Source of the DNA: a phage
Sequence record: OZ335962.1
Length of the DNA: 64,000 bases
Reading direction: 5' to 3' (one strand)
Notes under the pieces: generated by a model
Databases searched by the model: none
What the model saw: the letters and a program-made list of their open reading frames with translations, nothing else
Told to the model about the DNA's origin: nothing
Translations under genes and position numbers: made by a program
In this document: piece by piece, positions 2,992-62,417 of the stretch
How the letters are laid out: each line of letters begins with the position of its first letter
How positions within the stretch are numbered: the stretch's first letter is position 1

Positions 2992-3001
2992 TATTTATTC
3001 C

Positions 3002-3637
3002 TCACAGTTCAGATGCTACGGTGATTACTGCTTCAATGTTTTCTGCCGAGCGTTTAATGTCAAGATACACATTGCCGTTTTTAGCGATTTTACATGACAT
3101 TCCAATATCAGTAAATTTCTGAATATGGTGTTCCATCATTTTGTATCCAAAAATTCGCATATTTCCATTGTTATTAATTTCAAAATTACGAATTCCGTGA
3201 GTGCGTTTTTCTAAAATAGCAAGATAGTTACTGCGGTAAGTTTCAACCTTTTTAAGAACAAATCCATTTTCATCTAAAAGTTTTAACATGAAGTCTTTAT
3301 CTTCTTCCATATCGGAAGTAATCTCGCGAGCTTTACGAGTTGCTCGTTTTTTCAGTAGTTCAGGAGCATTTTCCTGCGCGTATAAAGTTGCTGCATTTGA
3401 AATAATATCCTGAGCTTCGCCTGTAATGATTAATCCATCACCAGATTTCTCCACCAGGCCTTTTTTAATCAATACCCCAATATTACTATTAACTACTGCG
3501 TTACCTAAATCTGGATGCACCTCACGAACTTCTGCGGCTGTAATGAAATCTTTCTTAGCAATGGTAATTAAAATCGCAGCAGTTTTTTCATTCAGAACAT
3601 CGTTAGAAGCTTTGATGATGTAAGTTACTTTAGACAT
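3002..3637 (-). CDS. motA: Middle-transcription activator MotA
   Basis: 211 aa; matches T4 MotA in length, sequence and position. Confidence 0.9.
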   Translation of the reverse strand: MSKVTYIIKASNDVLNEKTAAILITIAKKDFITAAEVREVHPDLGNAVVNSNIGVLIKKGLVEKSGDGLIITGEAQDIISNAATLYAQENAPELLKKRATRKAREITSDMEEDKDFMLKLLDENGFVLKKVETYRSNYLAILEKRTHGIRNFEINNNGNMRIFGYKMMEHHIQKFTDIGMSCKIAKNGNVYLDIKRSAENIEAVITVASEL

Positions 3638-3742
3638 TTTAATCTCCGTTTCAGTTCATTTATTTGATAGGTCTATAGTATCATGTTTAAAGCAGAAGTA
3701 AACACTTTTTTGCACTCTTTTTCAAGAGCTCTAATAAAGTAC

Positions 3743-3970
3743 TTACTTAATGTTCAGATTACGAACTTCGATTTCGTCTTCATGGGCAAAATCAAACTGT
3801 TTGAATTCTGTGTCACCTTTAAATTTAAAAATCATTGTGAAGAAAGTCAGAACACCGGGTTTTTCTTCACGAACTCCACAGATATCATATTCAATACCAT
3901 CTACAACCAGTTTGTTAGCAGTCAGAGCATTTTTAGCTTTAACGATTTCGTTTTCGATTTTAAATTTCAT
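3743..3970 (-). CDS. Hypothetical protein, 75 aa
   Basis: ORF with ATG and SD GGAGAT; directly downstream of early promoter at 4012-4049. Confidence 0.5.
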   Translation of the reverse strand: MKFKIENEIVKAKNALTANKLVVDGIEYDICGVREEKPGVLTFFTMIFKFKGDTEFKQFDFAHEDEIEVRNLNIK

Positions 3971-4011
3971 TTTTTGTATCTCCGGGTTGTTTGTTTCAGT
4001 TCATTTATTTG

Positions 4012-4049
4012 ATAGTTGTATAGTACCATAAAGCTTTATGCTTGTAAAC
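4012..4049 (-). promoter_or_regulatory. T4-type early promoter (-35 GTTTAC, 18-nt spacer, -10 TACTAT with upstream TGG)
   Basis: Minus-strand read GTTTACAAGCATAAAGCTTTATGGTACTAT; part of promoter/terminator cassette. Confidence 0.6.
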
Positions 4050-4072
4050 CGTTTTGTGAAAAAATTTTGAAA

Positions 4073-4101
4073 TAAAAAAAAGGGAGAGCCTCGGCTCTCC
4101 C
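4073..4101 (-). terminator. Rho-independent terminator (GC hairpin + U-run) downstream of gene 52 operon
   Basis: gggagagcctcggctctccc hairpin at 4082-4101 followed on the minus strand by T-run (plus-strand A-run 4073-4081). Confidence 0.65.
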
Positions 4102-4106
4102 TAAAA

Positions 4107-4256
4107 TTACTGCATGACTGTGATAACTGTCATGATAACACGTTGAATTCCGAACGCAAGAAGACCTCCTGCTACGGCAGGAACAACACCTAAACCCGCC
4201 AGTAAAATGCCACCAGATACTAATGCAGCGCTTGTAATACCTATGAATGGACTCAT
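4107..4256 (-). CDS. Small hydrophobic peptide, 49 aa
   Basis: Hand translation MSPFIGITSAALVSGGILLAGLGVVPAVAGGLLAFGIQRVIMTVITVMQ; ATGA overlap with gene 52 stop; below track size cutoff. Confidence 0.35.
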   Translation of the reverse strand: MSPFIGITSAALVSGGILLAGLGVVPAVAGGLLAFGIQRVIMTVITVMQ

Positions 4257-5581
4257 TTGATTTCCTCTAAATCTTTGGTGTATTCTGTAACTACATCAGT
4301 AGTTTTCCAATATTCGTTTTCTTCTTTTTTAGCTTTAGCTTCTTCAGCAAGTTTCTTTGCTTCGTCGGAAGTCATATGAAAAATATTCATTCCAACTAGT
4401 TTATCAACATAAGAAGAATACATATCAATTTTAGAAAGTTCTTCGGTCAGTTCTTTGCGAGTTTTACCCTGCACAACAATTTCATCTGAAATTACTTTCT
4501 TAATGAAATGCGCCTTGGCAAAGGCTAAACGAAATGCTGATTCAGTTTCTTTGATTTTGTTATCAATTCGTTTTTGGACATAAGTTTTACGAACTTCAAC
4601 GAAGTCTTTGATTAAATCAACTACGTTATCGTAAACTTGTAGTTTTCCTTTCTCATTAATAACGGTAATATTCTGGGAACGACGCTCAATCAACCCGAAG
4701 TCTTTCATAATTTTTGCATGGCGTTCTTCTTCGTTATCGCTCAAAGAGTATTCTTTACGGAATTTAACTTTAAAGCCAAACCCGTGCTCACCACAAGCAT
4801 CATCCCACATAATGAAGCCTTTATCTTCAAGCGGGTCTAAGATTTTACTCACATAAGTTTCACGATCATACTTATACGGAATCTCAGTGATATTCATTTG
4901 AGTTCGTGAAGTAAACTTGTACGTTCCACGAATTTCATATTGACCGTCAATTTCAACGACTTCACCGCGAAATTCTGGAAATTCTACCTTCGGTTTAGTT
5001 ACTTTCTTTCCTTGAAGAGCTTGCAATACAGCTTTCTTGACAGAAGAAACACTATGAGGAAGAATATAAGTTGCATAACCAGTTGCAATACCGGAAACAC
5101 CATTAAGAAGAACAGTAGGAATAATAGGCAAATAGAAAGCAGGCGGAATGTGTTCTTTATCTTGATGTACCGGAGCATATTCAGTATCTTTATATACGCT
5201 ATAGAAATTTTTACTTACACGAGCAAAAATATAACGACTTGCCGCTGCTTTTTGAACGGTACGAGAACCAAAGTTTCCTTGACCATCTAACAGAGGAAAG
5301 TTATTATTCCAAGTATTAGCCATCAAAGCACCTGCGTCTTGTGCAGAGTTTTCACCATGATGATATCCAAGGTCTGCTACACCACCTGCAATAGAAGCGA
5401 GTTTGTGAAACTTATCTTTATTTCCTCGTGCCAAATCAAGAGCTCGAGCAATAACAAATCGTTGAACTGGCTTAAATCCATCAATCATATTTGGGATAGC
5501 ACGATTTTCAACCGTGTACATAGCATAAGCCAATGCTTCATTATCAATGATACTTTTTAAATCGCGATTATTCAGTTGCAT
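4253..5581 (-). CDS. 52: DNA topoisomerase II medium subunit gp52 (GyrA-like)
   Basis: 442 aa; matches T4 gp52 in length and sequence. Confidence 0.95.
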   Translation of the reverse strand: MQLNNRDLKSIIDNEALAYAMYTVENRAIPNMIDGFKPVQRFVIARALDLARGNKDKFHKLASIAGGVADLGYHHGENSAQDAGALMANTWNNNFPLLDGQGNFGSRTVQKAAASRYIFARVSKNFYSVYKDTEYAPVHQDKEHIPPAFYLPIIPTVLLNGVSGIATGYATYILPHSVSSVKKAVLQALQGKKVTKPKVEFPEFRGEVVEIDGQYEIRGTYKFTSRTQMNITEIPYKYDRETYVSKILDPLEDKGFIMWDDACGEHGFGFKVKFRKEYSLSDNEEERHAKIMKDFGLIERRSQNITVINEKGKLQVYDNVVDLIKDFVEVRKTYVQKRIDNKIKETESAFRLAFAKAHFIKKVISDEIVVQGKTRKELTEELSKIDMYSSYVDKLVGMNIFHMTSDEAKKLAEEAKAKKEENEYWKTTDVVTEYTKDLEEIK

Positions 5582-5585
5582 AAAT

Positions 5586-5726
5586 TTACCATACTAGTGA
5601 ATGTAGTGCCATAATAACATCAGAAATGAAAAGCACGACTTGAATTAATCCGAACATTACTCCATAATATAGTGCTACCAATAAAGTAGCAAGGGCTAAT
5701 GAATAGCCCAAGATTTTCTTAATCAT
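5586..5726 (-). CDS. Small membrane peptide, 46 aa
   Basis: Hand translation MIKKILGYSLALATLLVALYYGVMFGLIQVVLFISDVIMALHSLVW; no clear SD. Confidence 0.3.
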   Translation of the reverse strand: MIKKILGYSLALATLLVALYYGVMFGLIQVVLFISDVIMALHSLVW

Positions 5727-6977: not shown

Positions 6978-7175
6978 TCATTTTACACCATTCCAAATTG
7001 TTTCAACCACAGATTTTAAGCCATTTTGATGAATGTCCATTCCGACAACTGCCATCAAATAAATTCCAACTACAACTGAACCTAAGGCGAAAATCAGCAT
7101 GAAAATGAATAAAGCCGGAAAAATATTATCAAAAAACCATTCAACAAATGTAAAAGCACTGCGTTTACGCTTCAT
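6978..7175 (-). CDS. Small membrane protein, 65 aa
   Basis: Start placed at internal ATG with SD GAGGAAAAT; hydrophobic C-terminal half. Confidence 0.45.
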   Translation of the reverse strand: MKRKRSAFTFVEWFFDNIFPALFIFMLIFALGSVVVGIYLMAVVGMDIHQNGLKSVVETIWNGVK

Positions 7176-7182
7176 ATTTTCC

Positions 7183-7296
7183 TCACATAAATCCAAAGTA
7201 AGCGTTTAATACATCAATCATTAAAACGATTGGGAATATACTCAAAACTACTAGTATTATAACTACATTCCATATAGCTTTAACAATCTTTTTCAT
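7183..7296 (-). CDS. Small membrane peptide, 37 aa
   Basis: MKKIVKAIWNVVIILVVLSIFPIVLMIDVLNAYFGFM; SD GGAGGAACAG; track ORF extension runs through promoter. Confidence 0.4.
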   Translation of the reverse strand: MKKIVKAIWNVVIILVVLSIFPIVLMIDVLNAYFGFM

Positions 7297-7316
7297 TTTC
7301 TGTTCCTCCGTAGTTG

Positions 7317-7354
7317 ATAGGGTAATAGTACCACAGAGGAACAGTCTTGTAAAC
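7317..7354 (-). promoter_or_regulatory. T4-type early promoter
   Basis: GTTTACAAGACTGTTCCTCTGTGGTACTAT on minus strand. Confidence 0.6.
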
Positions 7355-7539
7355 CACTTTTTTAAAAATATTCGTAATAAATGTGAATACCAATCACCAC
7401 TGCCGAAACTTGCGCAACCCACCATGCACAAGCAATAAGTACAGAATTCAAAATTTTCATAATAACCTCATTACAAAAGTAAATGTTAAACAAATTAATG
7501 GAATACTAATTAACCAAACGAAACACCACCATAATGAAC

Positions 7540-7803: not shown

Positions 7804-7822
7804 TTTTACTCCTCCGTAGCTG

Positions 7823-7860
7823 ATAGTTGTATAGTACCACAGTCCTTGTGGTATGTAAAC
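7823..7860 (-). promoter_or_regulatory. T4-type early promoter
   Basis: -35 GTTTAC (7855-7860), 18-nt spacer, -10 TACTAT (7831-7836). Confidence 0.55.
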
Positions 7861-7877
7861 CGTTTTGTGAAAAATTT

Positions 7878-8435
7878 TTAAATGGAAAGATACCATCCAT
7901 TGTAGTTGCTTTTTCTTACAACCTTACGAAGGTCTTCTCTGTCACCGATGAACTTCGGAGTGTACTGGATGACACCTGGATGAATTTCTTTAGTGTTGAA
8001 TATAATTATACAGTCAGCGACCTGATGATTCAGAATGGGCCCTAGATTTATTCCAGAACCGTATGGATACTCTCCGCTGCATCCGGTTGTTACCGAAATC
8101 CAACGTGAGTCAGTTTGATGTGTTTTGACTTCTACACGAAGCCCGCAGTATCTTGGATGCGCCAATACATCCCATGCATATGTATACGGGTCATTAACAT
8201 CCTCTTGCCCTTTGTTAACATAGCCGCTTAGCCAATCTGCTACAAAAAATTCTGCGTACACCGCGATACGACATCTTTCAATAACTTCTGCTTTATCCTG
8301 GTTCGGGTTTTGTTTTAAAGAGTATCTTGCTGTATCAGCAATTTTGACCTTCATTTCACTAGTCAAGTCACTGTTCGATAGGGTAAATGTCGGAATCTGA
8401 AATAGTCTCTGTAAACCCGGATTCGTTTTCTGCAT
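7878..8435 (-). CDS. denB: Endonuclease IV DenB
   Basis: 185 aa; matches T4 endo IV in length and position next to rIIB; SD AAGGAAAG. Confidence 0.8.
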   Translation of the reverse strand: MQKTNPGLQRLFQIPTFTLSNSDLTSEMKVKIADTARYSLKQNPNQDKAEVIERCRIAVYAEFFVADWLSGYVNKGQEDVNDPYTYAWDVLAHPRYCGLRVEVKTHQTDSRWISVTTGCSGEYPYGSGINLGPILNHQVADCIIIFNTKEIHPGVIQYTPKFIGDREDLRKVVRKSNYNGWYLSI

Positions 8436-34389: not shown

Positions 34390-34415
34390 TTCATTCTCCA
34401 AATTTGTATTGGTTG

Positions 34416-34453
34416 ATAGAGTAATAGTACCACAGAGGAACAGTCTTGTAAAC
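34416..34453 (-). promoter_or_regulatory. T4-type early promoter
   Basis: GTTTACAAGACTGTTCCTCTGTGGTACTAT. Confidence 0.6.
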
Positions 34454-58849: not shown

Positions 58850-59377
58850 TTATGCGAGTACCGTCTTTAACCGTTCTTCAAACTTCCGAAGAGTATTTTG
58901 GCGTTCAGCTCTTTGCTTTTTGTAAGTTTCAATACGCTCTGAAATGAGAGTGTATCGTTCATTTACTGATTCTTTCATAAAATCAGGAATTTCACGAGAA
59001 GCTTTAATCTCGTCAAATTTATCAATAACAGCTTGCTCTTCAGCAATTAAGTTATCATACATTAAAATATCTTTCTTGATGAACTCAATATCTTCTTGAG
59101 TTACACGAGATAATTTAGATGCTTTATCCTTTTTGTACTGTTCGTTAGTATCACGAGACCAGTGTAATGTACGATTTTTATTCGTATTTTTGTAAATTTC
59201 TACAATACCGATCTCATCAATAATAACGATCCAATTCCAACGGGATTTGTAAATTTGTCCTCCATCAACAGTGATTTCACCTCCGATTGAGATGTCATTA
59301 AAGAACTTGCTTTGTGCCTCAGATTTAAATTTACCATCGTTGTAATTTACCAAGTTGAAAATATCTTTAGCGTTCAT
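58850..59377 (-). CDS. Hypothetical protein, 175 aa
   Basis: ORF with ATG and SD GGAGGAACAG; downstream of early promoter. Confidence 0.55.
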   Translation of the reverse strand: MNAKDIFNLVNYNDGKFKSEAQSKFFNDISIGGEITVDGGQIYKSRWNWIVIIDEIGIVEIYKNTNKNRTLHWSRDTNEQYKKDKASKLSRVTQEDIEFIKKDILMYDNLIAEEQAVIDKFDEIKASREIPDFMKESVNERYTLISERIETYKKQRAERQNTLRKFEERLKTVLA

Positions 59378-59397
59378 TTTCTGTTCCTCCGTAGTTG

Positions 59398-59435
59398 ATA
59401 GGGTAATAGTACCACAGAGGAACAGTCTTGTAAAC
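59398..59435 (-). promoter_or_regulatory. T4-type early promoter
   Basis: GTTTACAAGACTGTTCCTCTGTGGTACTAT (same cassette as 7317-7354). Confidence 0.6.
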
Positions 59436-59437
59436 CA

Positions 59438-59740
59438 CTAAAAGAAACTTCTTTCACAATTTTTTCCACTGAACCATGCACTCACTGCTTTCTTAGTCTC
59501 AGGAGCAGTGTTATCCATAAACCATTCAAAGGCAGCCTTTTTATGATTCTGGAGGGCTTCTCGGGCTTTAATCTGCTCACGGTCTATTAACACTAACATA
59601 TGAGCCTTTCTTGTCACCATGGGCTTCTTATGATTTTTTGAATACTCCCAGTCATTTGTCCATCGCATTGTCGTTGCGAACTTAAATACTTCTTCTTTAA
59701 TTTTAGTTTCGTAAATTTCACGAGCCTTTGAGTATAACAT
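59438..59740 (-). CDS. Hypothetical protein, about 100 aa
   Basis: Start at ATG 59740, 5 nt after SD GGAGG; 3-prime end overlaps promoter cassette. Confidence 0.45.
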   Translation of the reverse strand: MLYSKAREIYETKIKEEVFKFATTMRWTNDWEYSKNHKKPMVTRKAHMLVLIDREQIKAREALQNHKKAAFEWFMDNTAPETKKAVSAWFSGKNCERSFF

Positions 59741-59841
59741 CATTACCTCCATTCACCAGTTTAATTCTAGTCATCTTTTTAATGGCAGTCCATATAATCT
59801 ATTTCTGAACTGCCTTTTTGTCATAGAAGTCCTCTTATGAA

Positions 59842-60810
59842 TTATTTCAGAAGAGTAACCTCAGCGATTTCTTCCCAACCGTTTTTGTCGGTCATAATAA
59901 AGTCAGCAAGATAAAGAGCAGTACGCAGTGAAACATTGCGTAAACGATTAACATTAACTTTCATCCATGATAATGCTTTATAAGTTTCTTCATCAGAAAG
60001 ACCGCGCTTTTGCATCATGTCAGTTGAAAGAATAACATCTTCAACCCTGACCATAATTTCTTCATTAGTATGAACACCCAAATCCAAATAAACTGAGCGG
60101 GACACTAATGCTTGTAAATGTGGAGCAAGTTTAGTACCGCGGTCTAATTCGCGGTCAATGTCAACGTTTGTGATAAAAACAATCGTTCCTTTAAATTCAA
60201 ACTCACGCTCAATGCCTTTTTCTTCTAAGTAAGAAGACGCAGTGCTCCAGCAGACTTTACGGGTCTCTCCAGTGTCCAGAGCGGCTTTTAGAAGATTAAG
60301 AATGTCCATATCAGAGAAAACATCCACATCATCAATCAAAAGGACAGAATTCTCTTCACGATTATTCCAAAGCTGCTCATAAAGACCAATACCAGAGATT
60401 TTACCATTAATGCTTTTATATTCAATGTATCCAATATCATTTGCTTTATTCAAAGCTTTATCTAAAGAATACGTTTTACCAATACCTGCTGCACCAGAGA
60501 TAATCAATGAACGAATATTTCCATTAATAATACCATTCGTCATCATTCCCATAACATTAAATCTTTTATTAATGCGGGTTTTCATATCTTCATACGATTC
60601 TTTAACTTCTTCAACTTTTACACCATCATATGAAATATCTGATTTGTAAACCCAAACACCGCGACGTTTACCGTCAATTTCAACAAAAACTTTACCATCT
60701 CCTTGTGCATCTACCGGAGCATTATCTGGGAACCATTCGCCTAAGAGCTCAAAAGTTCCAGAGATTTCTTTACCGAAGTAGATACCCTTATTGATAGTTA
60801 CAGTTTTCAT
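59842..60810 (-). CDS. P-loop ATPase (AAA-like), 322 aa
   Basis: Start at ATG 60810 with SD GGAGAA (track start GTG); Walker A GAAGIGKT and Walker B LLIDDVD. Confidence 0.65.
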   Translation of the reverse strand: MKTVTINKGIYFGKEISGTFELLGEWFPDNAPVDAQGDGKVFVEIDGKRRGVWVYKSDISYDGVKVEEVKESYEDMKTRINKRFNVMGMMTNGIINGNIRSLIISGAAGIGKTYSLDKALNKANDIGYIEYKSINGKISGIGLYEQLWNNREENSVLLIDDVDVFSDMDILNLLKAALDTGETRKVCWSTASSYLEEKGIEREFEFKGTIVFITNVDIDRELDRGTKLAPHLQALVSRSVYLDLGVHTNEEIMVRVEDVILSTDMMQKRGLSDEETYKALSWMKVNVNRLRNVSLRTALYLADFIMTDKNGWEEIAEVTLLK

Positions 60811-60838
60811 TTTATTCTCCAATTTCACATTTGTTTTG

Positions 60839-60876
60839 ATAGGGTAATAGTATCACACTACTACCCTACTGTAAAC
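60839..60876 (-). promoter_or_regulatory. T4-type early promoter
   Basis: -35 GTTTAC 60871-60876; 18-nt spacer; -10 TACTAT 60847-60852. Confidence 0.55.
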
Positions 60877-60879
60877 AAT

Positions 60880-61143
60880 TTATTTTAATGTTTGCCAAAT
60901 TTTTACTGCTTCGCGACGAGATACTTCTACAGCTCCAAGTTCTACGGCTTTTTGGCGTCGGCGAGCATGTAAGTCATAATGTTTAATGCGTTTATCTTGA
61001 AACCAAGAACGTTTCATTCCTATTGCTTCTGCCATTTTATGAAGCTCTTCAATATCTCCATCAGTGAACATATGACAATTTTTAGTTGGATGACCGCGAA
61101 GTTTCCATCCATGATTCATTAAAACATCTACGTAAACTGTCAT
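60880..61143 (-). CDS. Hypothetical basic protein, 87 aa
   Basis: ORF with ATG; family assignment (DUF4031-like) is from memory, not verified. Confidence 0.5.
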   Translation of the reverse strand: MTVYVDVLMNHGWKLRGHPTKNCHMFTDGDIEELHKMAEAIGMKRSWFQDKRIKHYDLHARRRQKAVELGAVEVSRREAVKIWQTLK

Positions 61144-61288
61144 TGATTCTGCTCCAAATATGTTTCTATAATTTTCTGAGCGAGATAAACTGCGTTATCT
61201 TCAGTTGCATCTTCTAAGAAATTTTCAAAATAAGCTGAAATTTCTTCTGTATCAATCAACTTTTTTACTTCAATTAACGTAGTTTTCA
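61140..61288 (-). CDS. Small acidic protein, 49 aa
   Basis: Hand translation MKTTLIEVKKLIDTEEISAYFENFLEDATEDNAVYLAQKIIETYLEQNQ; ATGA coupling with next gene. Confidence 0.35.
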
Positions 61289-61313
61289 TTTTATTCCCCA
61301 AATCCGTATCAGT

Positions 61314-61401
61314 TGATAGTTGTATAGTACCATAAAGCTTTATGCTTGTAAACCGTTTTGTGAAAAAATTTTGAAATAAAAAAGGGAGCCCGAAGGCTCC
61401 C
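61314..61401 (-). repeat. Promoter + terminator cassette (PeSL-like), near-identical copy of 4011-4101
   Basis: About 70 bp identical to 4011-4081, then GC hairpin gggagcccgaaggctccc at 61384-61401; contains -35 GTTTAC 61348-61353 and -10 TACTAT 61324-61329. Confidence 0.7.
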
Positions 61402-61403
61402 TA

Positions 61404-62417
61404 TCATTTATAATAACTTCGATGGTTTTCAAGATAAATCCTCTCAAGGAAGTCATCCCAGAAACCCATGTCTACTTTTTGCTGCATACCGTTCTTAGAA
61501 GCTTCAATGGAAGCTGCTTCTACTTGATCGACTACATCTTCCAAAAACTCTTGAACAGTTTTAAATGGATGTTTACCCAACTTCACGTCGAGAATAAATG
61601 GAGCATCTTGAAGTGGATAGACTAAGTCACCAGTTTTGTAAATTTCCAATAGTTGGAGTCCACCACGGCAAGCATGACTCAGAGCTTTCCAGTCAATGCC
61701 CTCATTAGCTTCGGCCTTACGAGCGCGTTCGCCGTATTCAGCATCAAGTTTATTCAAAGATTGCTTAAGCTCGATAAGAGAAAGCGTTGTTTGATATTTA
61801 CGACCCAACACGGTGTAGAACGTTTGTGGTCCTGTTTTCTCATGATTATGGAATACCCATTCACAGAATTCGTTCTCTGGAAGACGATGCTTAATATCTT
61901 CAACTTTAGTTCGACGCTGCTTAATGGAACCGTCTTCTTGGTAATCAACCCATTGCTCAGGGATTTGATTAACTACTTTCAATACATCACGTAATGCGGC
62001 CAAACGAGAACCCTTGACACCATATTTAGAAGCTTGCTTGCGAACATATCCTAAATAGGATTTCATGTTAGTCGTATAAAAACGAGAACGATTGTCTTGA
62101 ATAAACTTCCATACATCAGGCAAATCAGATTTAACTACCAGTTCAGGTGGAGTATGGAGCATATCCAATGCTACAGTTTCACCATCTGCTGCTAATTTAA
62201 AGAAATACTTAAGACTGTATAGTTCATGGTCAATATCATCTTTAGTGTTTTTAGATGATGTGTTGTTAGTGTTTTTACTCATATGCTCTTTAACATTTCC
62301 GATAAGAATATCACGAGCAGGAGGAACAAAGATTTCTTTAAAATCTACATCAGATTCTGGAGTAGAAGTTCCATAAAGATGACTACCAAAATAGCTTTTC
62401 ATTACTGTTTTCATCAT
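61404..62417 (-). CDS. Putative nucleotidyltransferase (Pol-beta superfamily), 337 aa
   Basis: N-terminal G-S-x10-D-V-D motif (FGSHLYGTSTPESDVDF); ATGA coupling with upstream membrane protein gene. Confidence 0.6.
   Translation of the reverse strand: MMKTVMKSYFGSHLYGTSTPESDVDFKEIFVPPARDILIGNVKEHMSKNTNNTSSKNTKDDIDHELYSLKYFFKLAADGETVALDMLHTPPELVVKSDLPDVWKFIQDNRSRFYTTNMKSYLGYVRKQASKYGVKGSRLAALRDVLKVVNQIPEQWVDYQEDGSIKQRRTKVEDIKHRLPENEFCEWVFHNHEKTGPQTFYTVLGRKYQTTLSLIELKQSLNKLDAEYGERARKAEANEGIDWKALSHACRGGLQLLEIYKTGDLVYPLQDAPFILDVKLGKHPFKTVQEFLEDVVDQVEAASIEASKNGMQQKVDMGFWDDFLERIYLENHRSYYK

Follow-up and report, generated by a model that had tools for sequence, protein, structure and literature searches.

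The closest described counterparts of the locus pair presented here are the PeSLs (promoter-early stem-loops) of T4-type phages (Arbiol et al. 2010, PMC2839356). These are intergenic cassettes in which a strong early promoter is combined with a stem-loop acting as terminator; at their 3' end stand the Shine-Dalgarno sequence (SD) and start codon (ATG) of the gene that follows. Recombination between PeSLs has been proposed to shuffle the open reading frames (ORFs) that they flank, and mini-circles with crossovers between the -10 element and the SD/ATG have been detected (Arbiol et al. 2010, PMC2839356). In this model, conserved terminator/promoter cassettes are preferred crossover points, with small accessory genes being shuffled and transcription units left intact. 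The class was extended to T4 and PST, where the stem-loop stands just upstream of a promoter of the form TTTACW-N17-TAYWAT (Comeau et al. 2014, PMC4122927), and T4 early promoters have themselves been described as UP/-35/TGn/-10 promoters with a consensus beyond the -35 and -10 hexamers (PMC2988021). The original prediction for this DNA, that a cassette of a kind proposed to mediate modular shuffling in T4-type phages is duplicated here, therefore appeals to a published idea that covers T4 and PST (PMC2839356, PMC4122927). Our analysis indicates that the two cassettes are very probably PeSL-type terminator/early promoters whose perfect identity arose when the promoter spacer of one site, B, was copied into the other, A.

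The window, by which we mean the whole 64,000-nt stretch analyzed (record OZ335962.1), is from a Tequatrovirus (T4-like) phage, and in BLAST searches against phage genomes both regions of interest match hundreds of Tequatrovirus records at 90-99%. Comparison with annotated relatives and T4 places the motA / motA.1 / gene 52 region at about 3000-5600 and the nrdC.10 / nrdC.11 region at about 59800-62400. The early genes in both regions are all on the minus strand, and the cassettes are therefore to be read on that strand, to which all features of the two regions given below belong. Site A corresponds to the T4 motA-region promoter, downstream of motA.1, and site B is the ortholog of the T4 "early promoter 54.4," between nrdC.11 and nrdC.10. 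The phage is a mosaic, its site-B region being closest to UGKSEcP1/2 and vB_SsoM_113 (99.4%) and its site-A region to OE5505 and VIPECOOM01-03 (99.0-99.1%); UGKSEcP1 has the other of the two site-A spacer alleles described below. No database record matched the 140-nt site-A cassette at 100% by BLAST.

At site A, the stop codon of motA.1 (TAA, 4107-4109), a 49-aa gene (4107-4256) that is the last of the unit ending at this terminator, is followed after 4 nt by a nine-pair hairpin at 4081-4102 (AGGGAGAGC-CGAG-GCTCTCCCT; -18.7 kcal/mol, z -4.8), better than any of the shuffled sequences, and by a T8 run, with the U-run at about 4072-4080. Copy A of the 71-nt exact repeat (4009-4079) contains this T-run/UP region, the -35 element GTTTACA (4043-4049), a 14-nt spacer, GCATAAAGCTTTAT (4029-4042), that we regard as a converted patch since most relatives read CCAAAGCATACTGT here, and the TGn plus -10 element TGGTACTAT (4020-4028). 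Transcription is predicted to start near 4013, 7 nt past the -10. The site-specific leader is ATAAATGAACTGAAACAAACAACCCGGAGATACAAAAAATG, and the gene behind it has its SD and start codon in CCCGGAGATACAAAAAATG. At the T4 ortholog, upstream of motA, entry Z48569 annotates -35 and -10 signals. The terminator loop (4084-4101) is polymorphic when compared with related loci (L008, L010, L012 and L060-L063), reading either GCC-GA-GGC or GCC-TC-GGC, and this replacement of the central dinucleotide by its reverse complement looks like a hairpin-loop inversion by template switching.

Site B has the same architecture. The hairpin, of eight pairs (AGGGAGCC-TTCG-GGCTCCCT, 61383-61402), begins 1 nt past the nrdC.11 stop codon (TGA, 61404-61406), again folds better than all shuffled sequences (-17.4 kcal/mol, z -3.7) and is followed by a T6 run (U-run at about 61376-61382). 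Copy B (61313-61383) runs from the T-run and AT-rich UP region through about +5 and contains GTTTACA at 61347-61353, the same 14-nt spacer at 61333-61346 and TGn plus -10 (TGGTACTAT) at 61324-61332, with a start site predicted near 61317. Its own leader, CTGATACGGATTTGGGGAATAAAATG, ends in the SD and start codon TTTGGGGAATAAAATG. GenBank U76612 annotates the T4 ortholog with "terminator," -35, -10 and "early promoter 54.4," and the sequence between nrdC.11 and nrdC.10 in T4 matches copy B without a single difference, hairpin and leader included. The T4 RegB nuclease cuts at GGAG, a motif present in the T4 nrdC.10 leader and kept by the leader of the 75-aa ORF behind copy A; the SD of the 49-aa ORF behind copy B (61294-61297) reads GGGG instead, so its leader may escape RegB. 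The motA mRNA is cleaved by RegB inside its SD (PMC2988021).

Between hairpin and leader the two copies have in common the AT-rich block ATTTCAAAATTTTTTCACAAAAC, with TTTTTTATTTCAAAATTTTTTCACAAAAC directly ahead of GGTTTACA at the -35, and the stretch ACAACTATCAA after the -10. Each has the signals of an intrinsic terminator (8-9 bp stems, 4-nt loops and T6-T8 tails), and a terminator scan found three against 0.2-0.5 expected. Each also has what defines a T4 early promoter, namely a UP-like region, GTTTAC at the -35, TGn, a -10, a position upstream of an early gene and orthology to a mapped T4 early promoter, and the arrangement TTTACA-17-TACTAT with an upstream TG fits the PeSL formula TTTACW-N17-TAYWAT. 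Together with the AT-rich region, this gives both copies every feature of the T4/PST PeSL class that can be read at the sequence level. The leaders are unstructured on folding, and scans of the window over its full length for Rfam families and tRNAs returned nothing, with no sign of a structured RNA gene in the cassettes. Because the terminator T-run also makes up the distal portion of the UP-like, AT-rich region, the signals for stopping and restarting overlap in a span of about 95 nt. From this anatomy and the T4 annotation we infer terminator and promoter activity in the window phage, much as had been suggested for a cassette that ends upstream transcripts and restarts early transcription: the GC-rich hairpin and U-run would end the upstream early unit (gene 52-motA.1 at A, nrdC.11 at B), the T-run and AT-rich block would supply the UP-like region, and a strong T4 early promoter (GTTTACA, 17 bp, TGn-TACTAT) that includes it would restart transcription by host sigma-70 about 26 nt after the hairpin. 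Copy A would thus drive the 75-aa ORF and then motA, and copy B the 49-aa ORF, a DUF4031 ORF and nrdC.10.

Pairwise alignment shows that the copies are identical at 71 of 71 nt (4009-4079 and 61313-61383) over a distance of 57 kb, which bears out the expectation of about 70 near-identical bp at 61314-61383 and 4011-4081, apart from coordinates that were 1-2 nt off. No exact direct repeat in the window is longer, and a 32-mer from its core occurs at only these two places when up to three mismatches are allowed, with 0.00 expected by chance. The original prediction of a near-identical cassette of about 90 bp holds for the 71 nt only, as the identical block extends from within the T-run to about +5 and leaves outside it the leaders and the terminator stem-loops, which are similar but distinct. 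Likewise, a hairpin and U-run do accompany each copy, but they were described as following it because the order promoter, A-run, hairpin was read on the plus strand; on the minus strand the order is hairpin, U-run, promoter. To place the identity in context, 20 minus-strand GTTTAC-N17-TAnnnT sites in the window were put in a common 71-nt frame. Across the 190 pairs the median identity was 33/71 and the 95th percentile 48/71, and the best pair besides A and B reached 55/71. The suggestion that the two regions might be no more similar than other early promoters was thus put to the comparison and not upheld.

Several other early promoters also have stretches in common. A second long exact repeat, of 67 nt on the minus strand (7292-7358 and 59373-59439), begins at the -35 (GGTTTACAAGACTGTTCCTCTGTGGTACTATTACCCTATCAACTACGGAGGAACAGAAAATGAA) and takes in the SD and the start codon, the two small ORFs behind it being unrelated, and a third promoter at 34413 has 33 nt of core (34421-34453) in common with this pair. 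In vB_SsoM_113 the ortholog of the 59.4-kb promoter has a different -10-proximal block. Because of these three observations, patchwise exchange among early promoters looks general. The region at 7820-7890 (minus strand) is a third paralog of the A/B family, 55/71 identical, with the UP/-35 and -10/+1 blocks as in A and B and a third spacer, TACCACAAGGACTG; the leader of the corresponding T4 denB-ndd.6 promoter (L003, about 6985-7115) is nearly the same as the promoter 54.4 leader.

Each copy marks the upstream border of a gene module that is missing from T4, in agreement with the proposal that the cassettes bound variable modules. Behind copy A lies a 75-aa ORF of unknown function (phrog_10955, 3743-3970), followed by a second, motA-proximal promoter (TTTACT-16-TACTAT, 3675-3702) and motA, the activator of middle transcription (3002-3637); in T4, which has no 75-aa ORF, the site-A promoter leads directly to motA. 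Whereas 722 phage records match the site-A flanking region, 168 contain the ORF. Its module lies between two exact copies of a 23-nt direct repeat, CTATCAAATAAATGAACTGAAAC (3993-4015 and 3648-3670, 345 bp apart). A candidate MotA box, TGCTTTA, in the motA-proximal promoter was rejected, as it stands 7 nt from the -10 and the rule is 12±1 (PMC2988021). In L019-L025, loci from more distant T4-like genera in IMG/VR, the motA promoters resemble the window's motA-proximal promoter (GTTTAC-TTCTGCTTTAAAC...), and in L019 an ORF separates two promoters upstream of motA; the two-promoter arrangement may therefore predate the single-promoter arrangement of T4.

At site B, the module of 479 bp comprises a 49-aa ORF (phrog_6888, 61140-61289) and an 87-aa DUF4031 ORF (60880-61143), both absent from T4, and has at its downstream end an nrdC.10-proximal early promoter (TTTACA-17-TACTAT with TG, 60847-60875). 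Next comes the nrdC.10 homolog (322 aa, 59842-60810), with weak matches to AAA/STAND NTPases; on the other side, the last gene before the terminator is the nrdC.11 homolog, a nucleotidyltransferase (Pfam RlaP, 61404-62417). The module is present in 153 records, as against 592 matching the site-B flanking region. In the window lineage an SD-ATG direct repeat, TTGG(G/A)GAATAAAATGAAAACT, flanks it at 61281-61301 and 60802-60822, with 16 nt exact or 21 nt with one mismatch. In T4 the promoter leads directly to nrdC.10, and T4 and ES12 look exactly like the product of a deletion between these repeats. ACG-C40 (L064, 51855-52340) and LF73P3 (L065) carry a further inserted module between nrdC.11 and cassette B, an ADP-ribosylase gene annotated as ModB together with an early promoter and a terminator of its own; the window and T4 have no such insertion at this position. 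Comparing the cassette positions with indels in relatives, as had been advised, thus finds three modules present or absent at the cassette borders.

The history of the identical block can be followed through the spacer. The T4 cassettes are already paralogs that have the UP/-35 and -10/+1 blocks in common and related leaders, and differ in the 14-nt spacer, which is CCAAAGCATACTGT at the motA promoter (here "a") and GCATAAAGCTTTAT at promoter 54.4 ("b"). The two alleles differ at 9 of 14 nt, between unchanged site-specific flanks. Spacer a occupies site A in ACG-C40, PYps14T, YUEEL01, ES12 and two IMG/VR contigs, each with the 75-aa ORF and with the hairpin and leader that site A has in the window. 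A diagnostic query that joined spacer b to the site-A leader was compared with 125 full-length records. Spacer b was found at site A in 13 of these records (98.7-100% match, the remainder giving 90.9%), representing 11 phages: fFiEco06, fHoEco02, OE5505, GADU22, KK4, L14, LF73P3, VIPECOOM01-03 and vB_SsoM_113. Among phages that lack the 75-aa ORF none with spacer b was found, the best class (94%) being an a-like variant, CCAAAGCATTCTAT, in wV7. An exact-pattern scan of IMG/VR, which holds few Tequatrovirus genomes, returned the b-type core at three loci only, one copy each, and a search for related loci with MotA and NrdC.11 returned mostly distant genera, with four more close-relative site-A sequences and no b among them.

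Site B is far more uniform. Spacer b was seen there by inspection of the sequence in T4, ACG-C40, PYps14T, YUEEL01, fFiEco06 and vB_SsoM_113, and BLAST identity classes suggest that about 259 of 262 full-length records have it, the exceptions being ES12, ES26 and LF73P3; these counts are mostly from identity classes, with eight phages verified by sequence. Site B, the majority location, is thus probably the native home of b. ES12 has a at both sites, a reverse conversion, LF73P3 shows a swap, with b at A and a at B, and the window and fFiEco06 have b at both. With T4 (a at A, b at B), all four two-locus haplotypes occur in sequenced phages.

Since most relatives have a different 14-nt spacer at site A, the perfect identity, on this sequence comparison, is lineage-specific; it is neither ancestral nor a general property of the cassette. 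The change at site A is a block of 9 differences within 14 nt between unchanged site-specific flanks, which point mutation cannot explain and which marks it as a copied patch. Taken with the four haplotypes, the non-ancestral identity points to ectopic exchange of patches between the cassettes, and the haplotypes require at least one transfer from B to A and at least one from A to B. We propose that in the lineage of the window phage the 14-nt spacer of the promoter 54.4 type was copied from site B into the site-A promoter, with the common flanks priming ectopic homologous recombination, or gene conversion, as the likely route and most economical mechanism. The alleles could later have spread and been combined through ordinary allelic recombination between co-infecting phages. 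The common flanks measure only about 23-40 nt on the upstream side of the spacer and 19 nt on the downstream side, lengths near the lower end of the range for homologous recombination in T4; in the passage of Arbiol et al. (PMC2839356) that cites Singer 1982, T4 recombination is reported to need only small patches of homology (<50 bp).

A different origin would be the arrival of a mobile module, in which a PeSL mini-circle carrying a b-type promoter and the 75-aa ORF integrated upstream of motA and left the duplicate promoter as a scar. The mechanism is that of the published PeSL model (PMC2839356), and the 75-aa ORF is indeed an indel relative to T4 with 23-nt direct repeats on either side. 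However, 112 of the 125 records with the ORF have an a-type spacer upstream of it, so the presence of the ORF and of spacer b are unlinked, and the A-specific hairpin and A-specific leader are intact on either side of the b patch. Moreover, the distant relative L019 already has an ORF between two promoters at this position, without homology to the 75-aa ORF being implied. We consider this origin improbable. Still less probable is that both promoters need the exact sequence, spacer included, and that selection or convergence holds them identical. The extended consensus of T4 early promoters (PMC2988021) would fit such a constraint, as would the identical 33-nt core of three other window promoters, yet spacers vary widely across the 20 promoters of the window, and about 90% of comparable phages, T4 included, differ from the window in the spacer at the orthologous site A. 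Nor would constraint sit well with a change confined to one block of 9 in 14 nt between unchanged site-specific flanks, or with all four a/b combinations being viable isolates. Finally, although repeats can mislead assemblers and the ES12 and ES26 records are flagged "UNVERIFIED," there is scarcely any chance that reads of one promoter polished the other, as a 71-nt repeat with unique flanks is below typical read length and b is found at site A in 11 phages, the five inspected differing in source (Philippines, USA, Germany and Turkey; none recorded for fFiEco06).

Spacer copying between the two cassettes can be set in a broader frame, which we regard as unlikely: dispersed early-promoter cassettes of T4-like phages may swap cores over tens of kilobases, in both directions and at a rate high enough for all four haplotypes to segregate among sequenced isolates, through targeted recombination or selected spacer alleles. 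In that case recombination might be directed to promoters or hairpins, beyond generic homologous recombination on 20-40-nt flanks, or else the spacer alleles might differ functionally (e.g., in strength or in Alt/ModA responsiveness) and be selected at each locus. The 14-nt diagnostic patch can be read with site-specific flanking primers and may offer an assay of ectopic short-repeat recombination in T4.

As elements the cassettes are of no new kind, being T4 signals already known and belonging to a published class, and the evidence of the four haplotypes is a modest new detail; in the open-access literature we found no description of promoter-core exchange between these two distant cassettes or of the four-haplotype pattern. 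The locus pair nevertheless provides a clean natural example of two cassettes exchanging sequence across 57 kb, in keeping with the idea of PeSLs as recombination points: both directions of conversion and the swap are preserved in different isolates, and modules have been gained or lost at the cassette borders. To a T4 specialist this would be unsurprising, if tidy, support for the PeSL model.

When compared with the PeSLs already described, both copies have the stem-loop terminator, the AT-rich region, the sigma-70-type early promoter and the SD with start codon, both adjoin indels of small ORFs of unknown function, and the crossovers fall between the -10 and the ATG, as in the RB49 mini-circles. 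The chimeric cassettes and the four spacer haplotypes record past exchange between PeSL copies. In contrast, the published cases concern nearby PeSLs, with local excision, insertion or mini-circles, whereas the copies here are 57 kb apart and exchanged only the promoter core and no gene. Against T4 itself, site B is identical to promoter 54.4 (nrdC.10) from hairpin through leader, and site A has the hairpin, UP/-35 block and -10/+1 block of the motA early promoter, but with a spacer of the 54.4 type in place of the motA type; unlike in T4, small inserted ORFs precede motA and nrdC.10 in the window phage. A more general parallel is concerted evolution by gene conversion, for example in bacterial rRNA operons, where non-allelic copies are likewise homogenized through a tract between common flanks. 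Here, however, both tract and flanks are only 14-71 nt long, and the exchange is bidirectional and polymorphic in the population rather than fixed.
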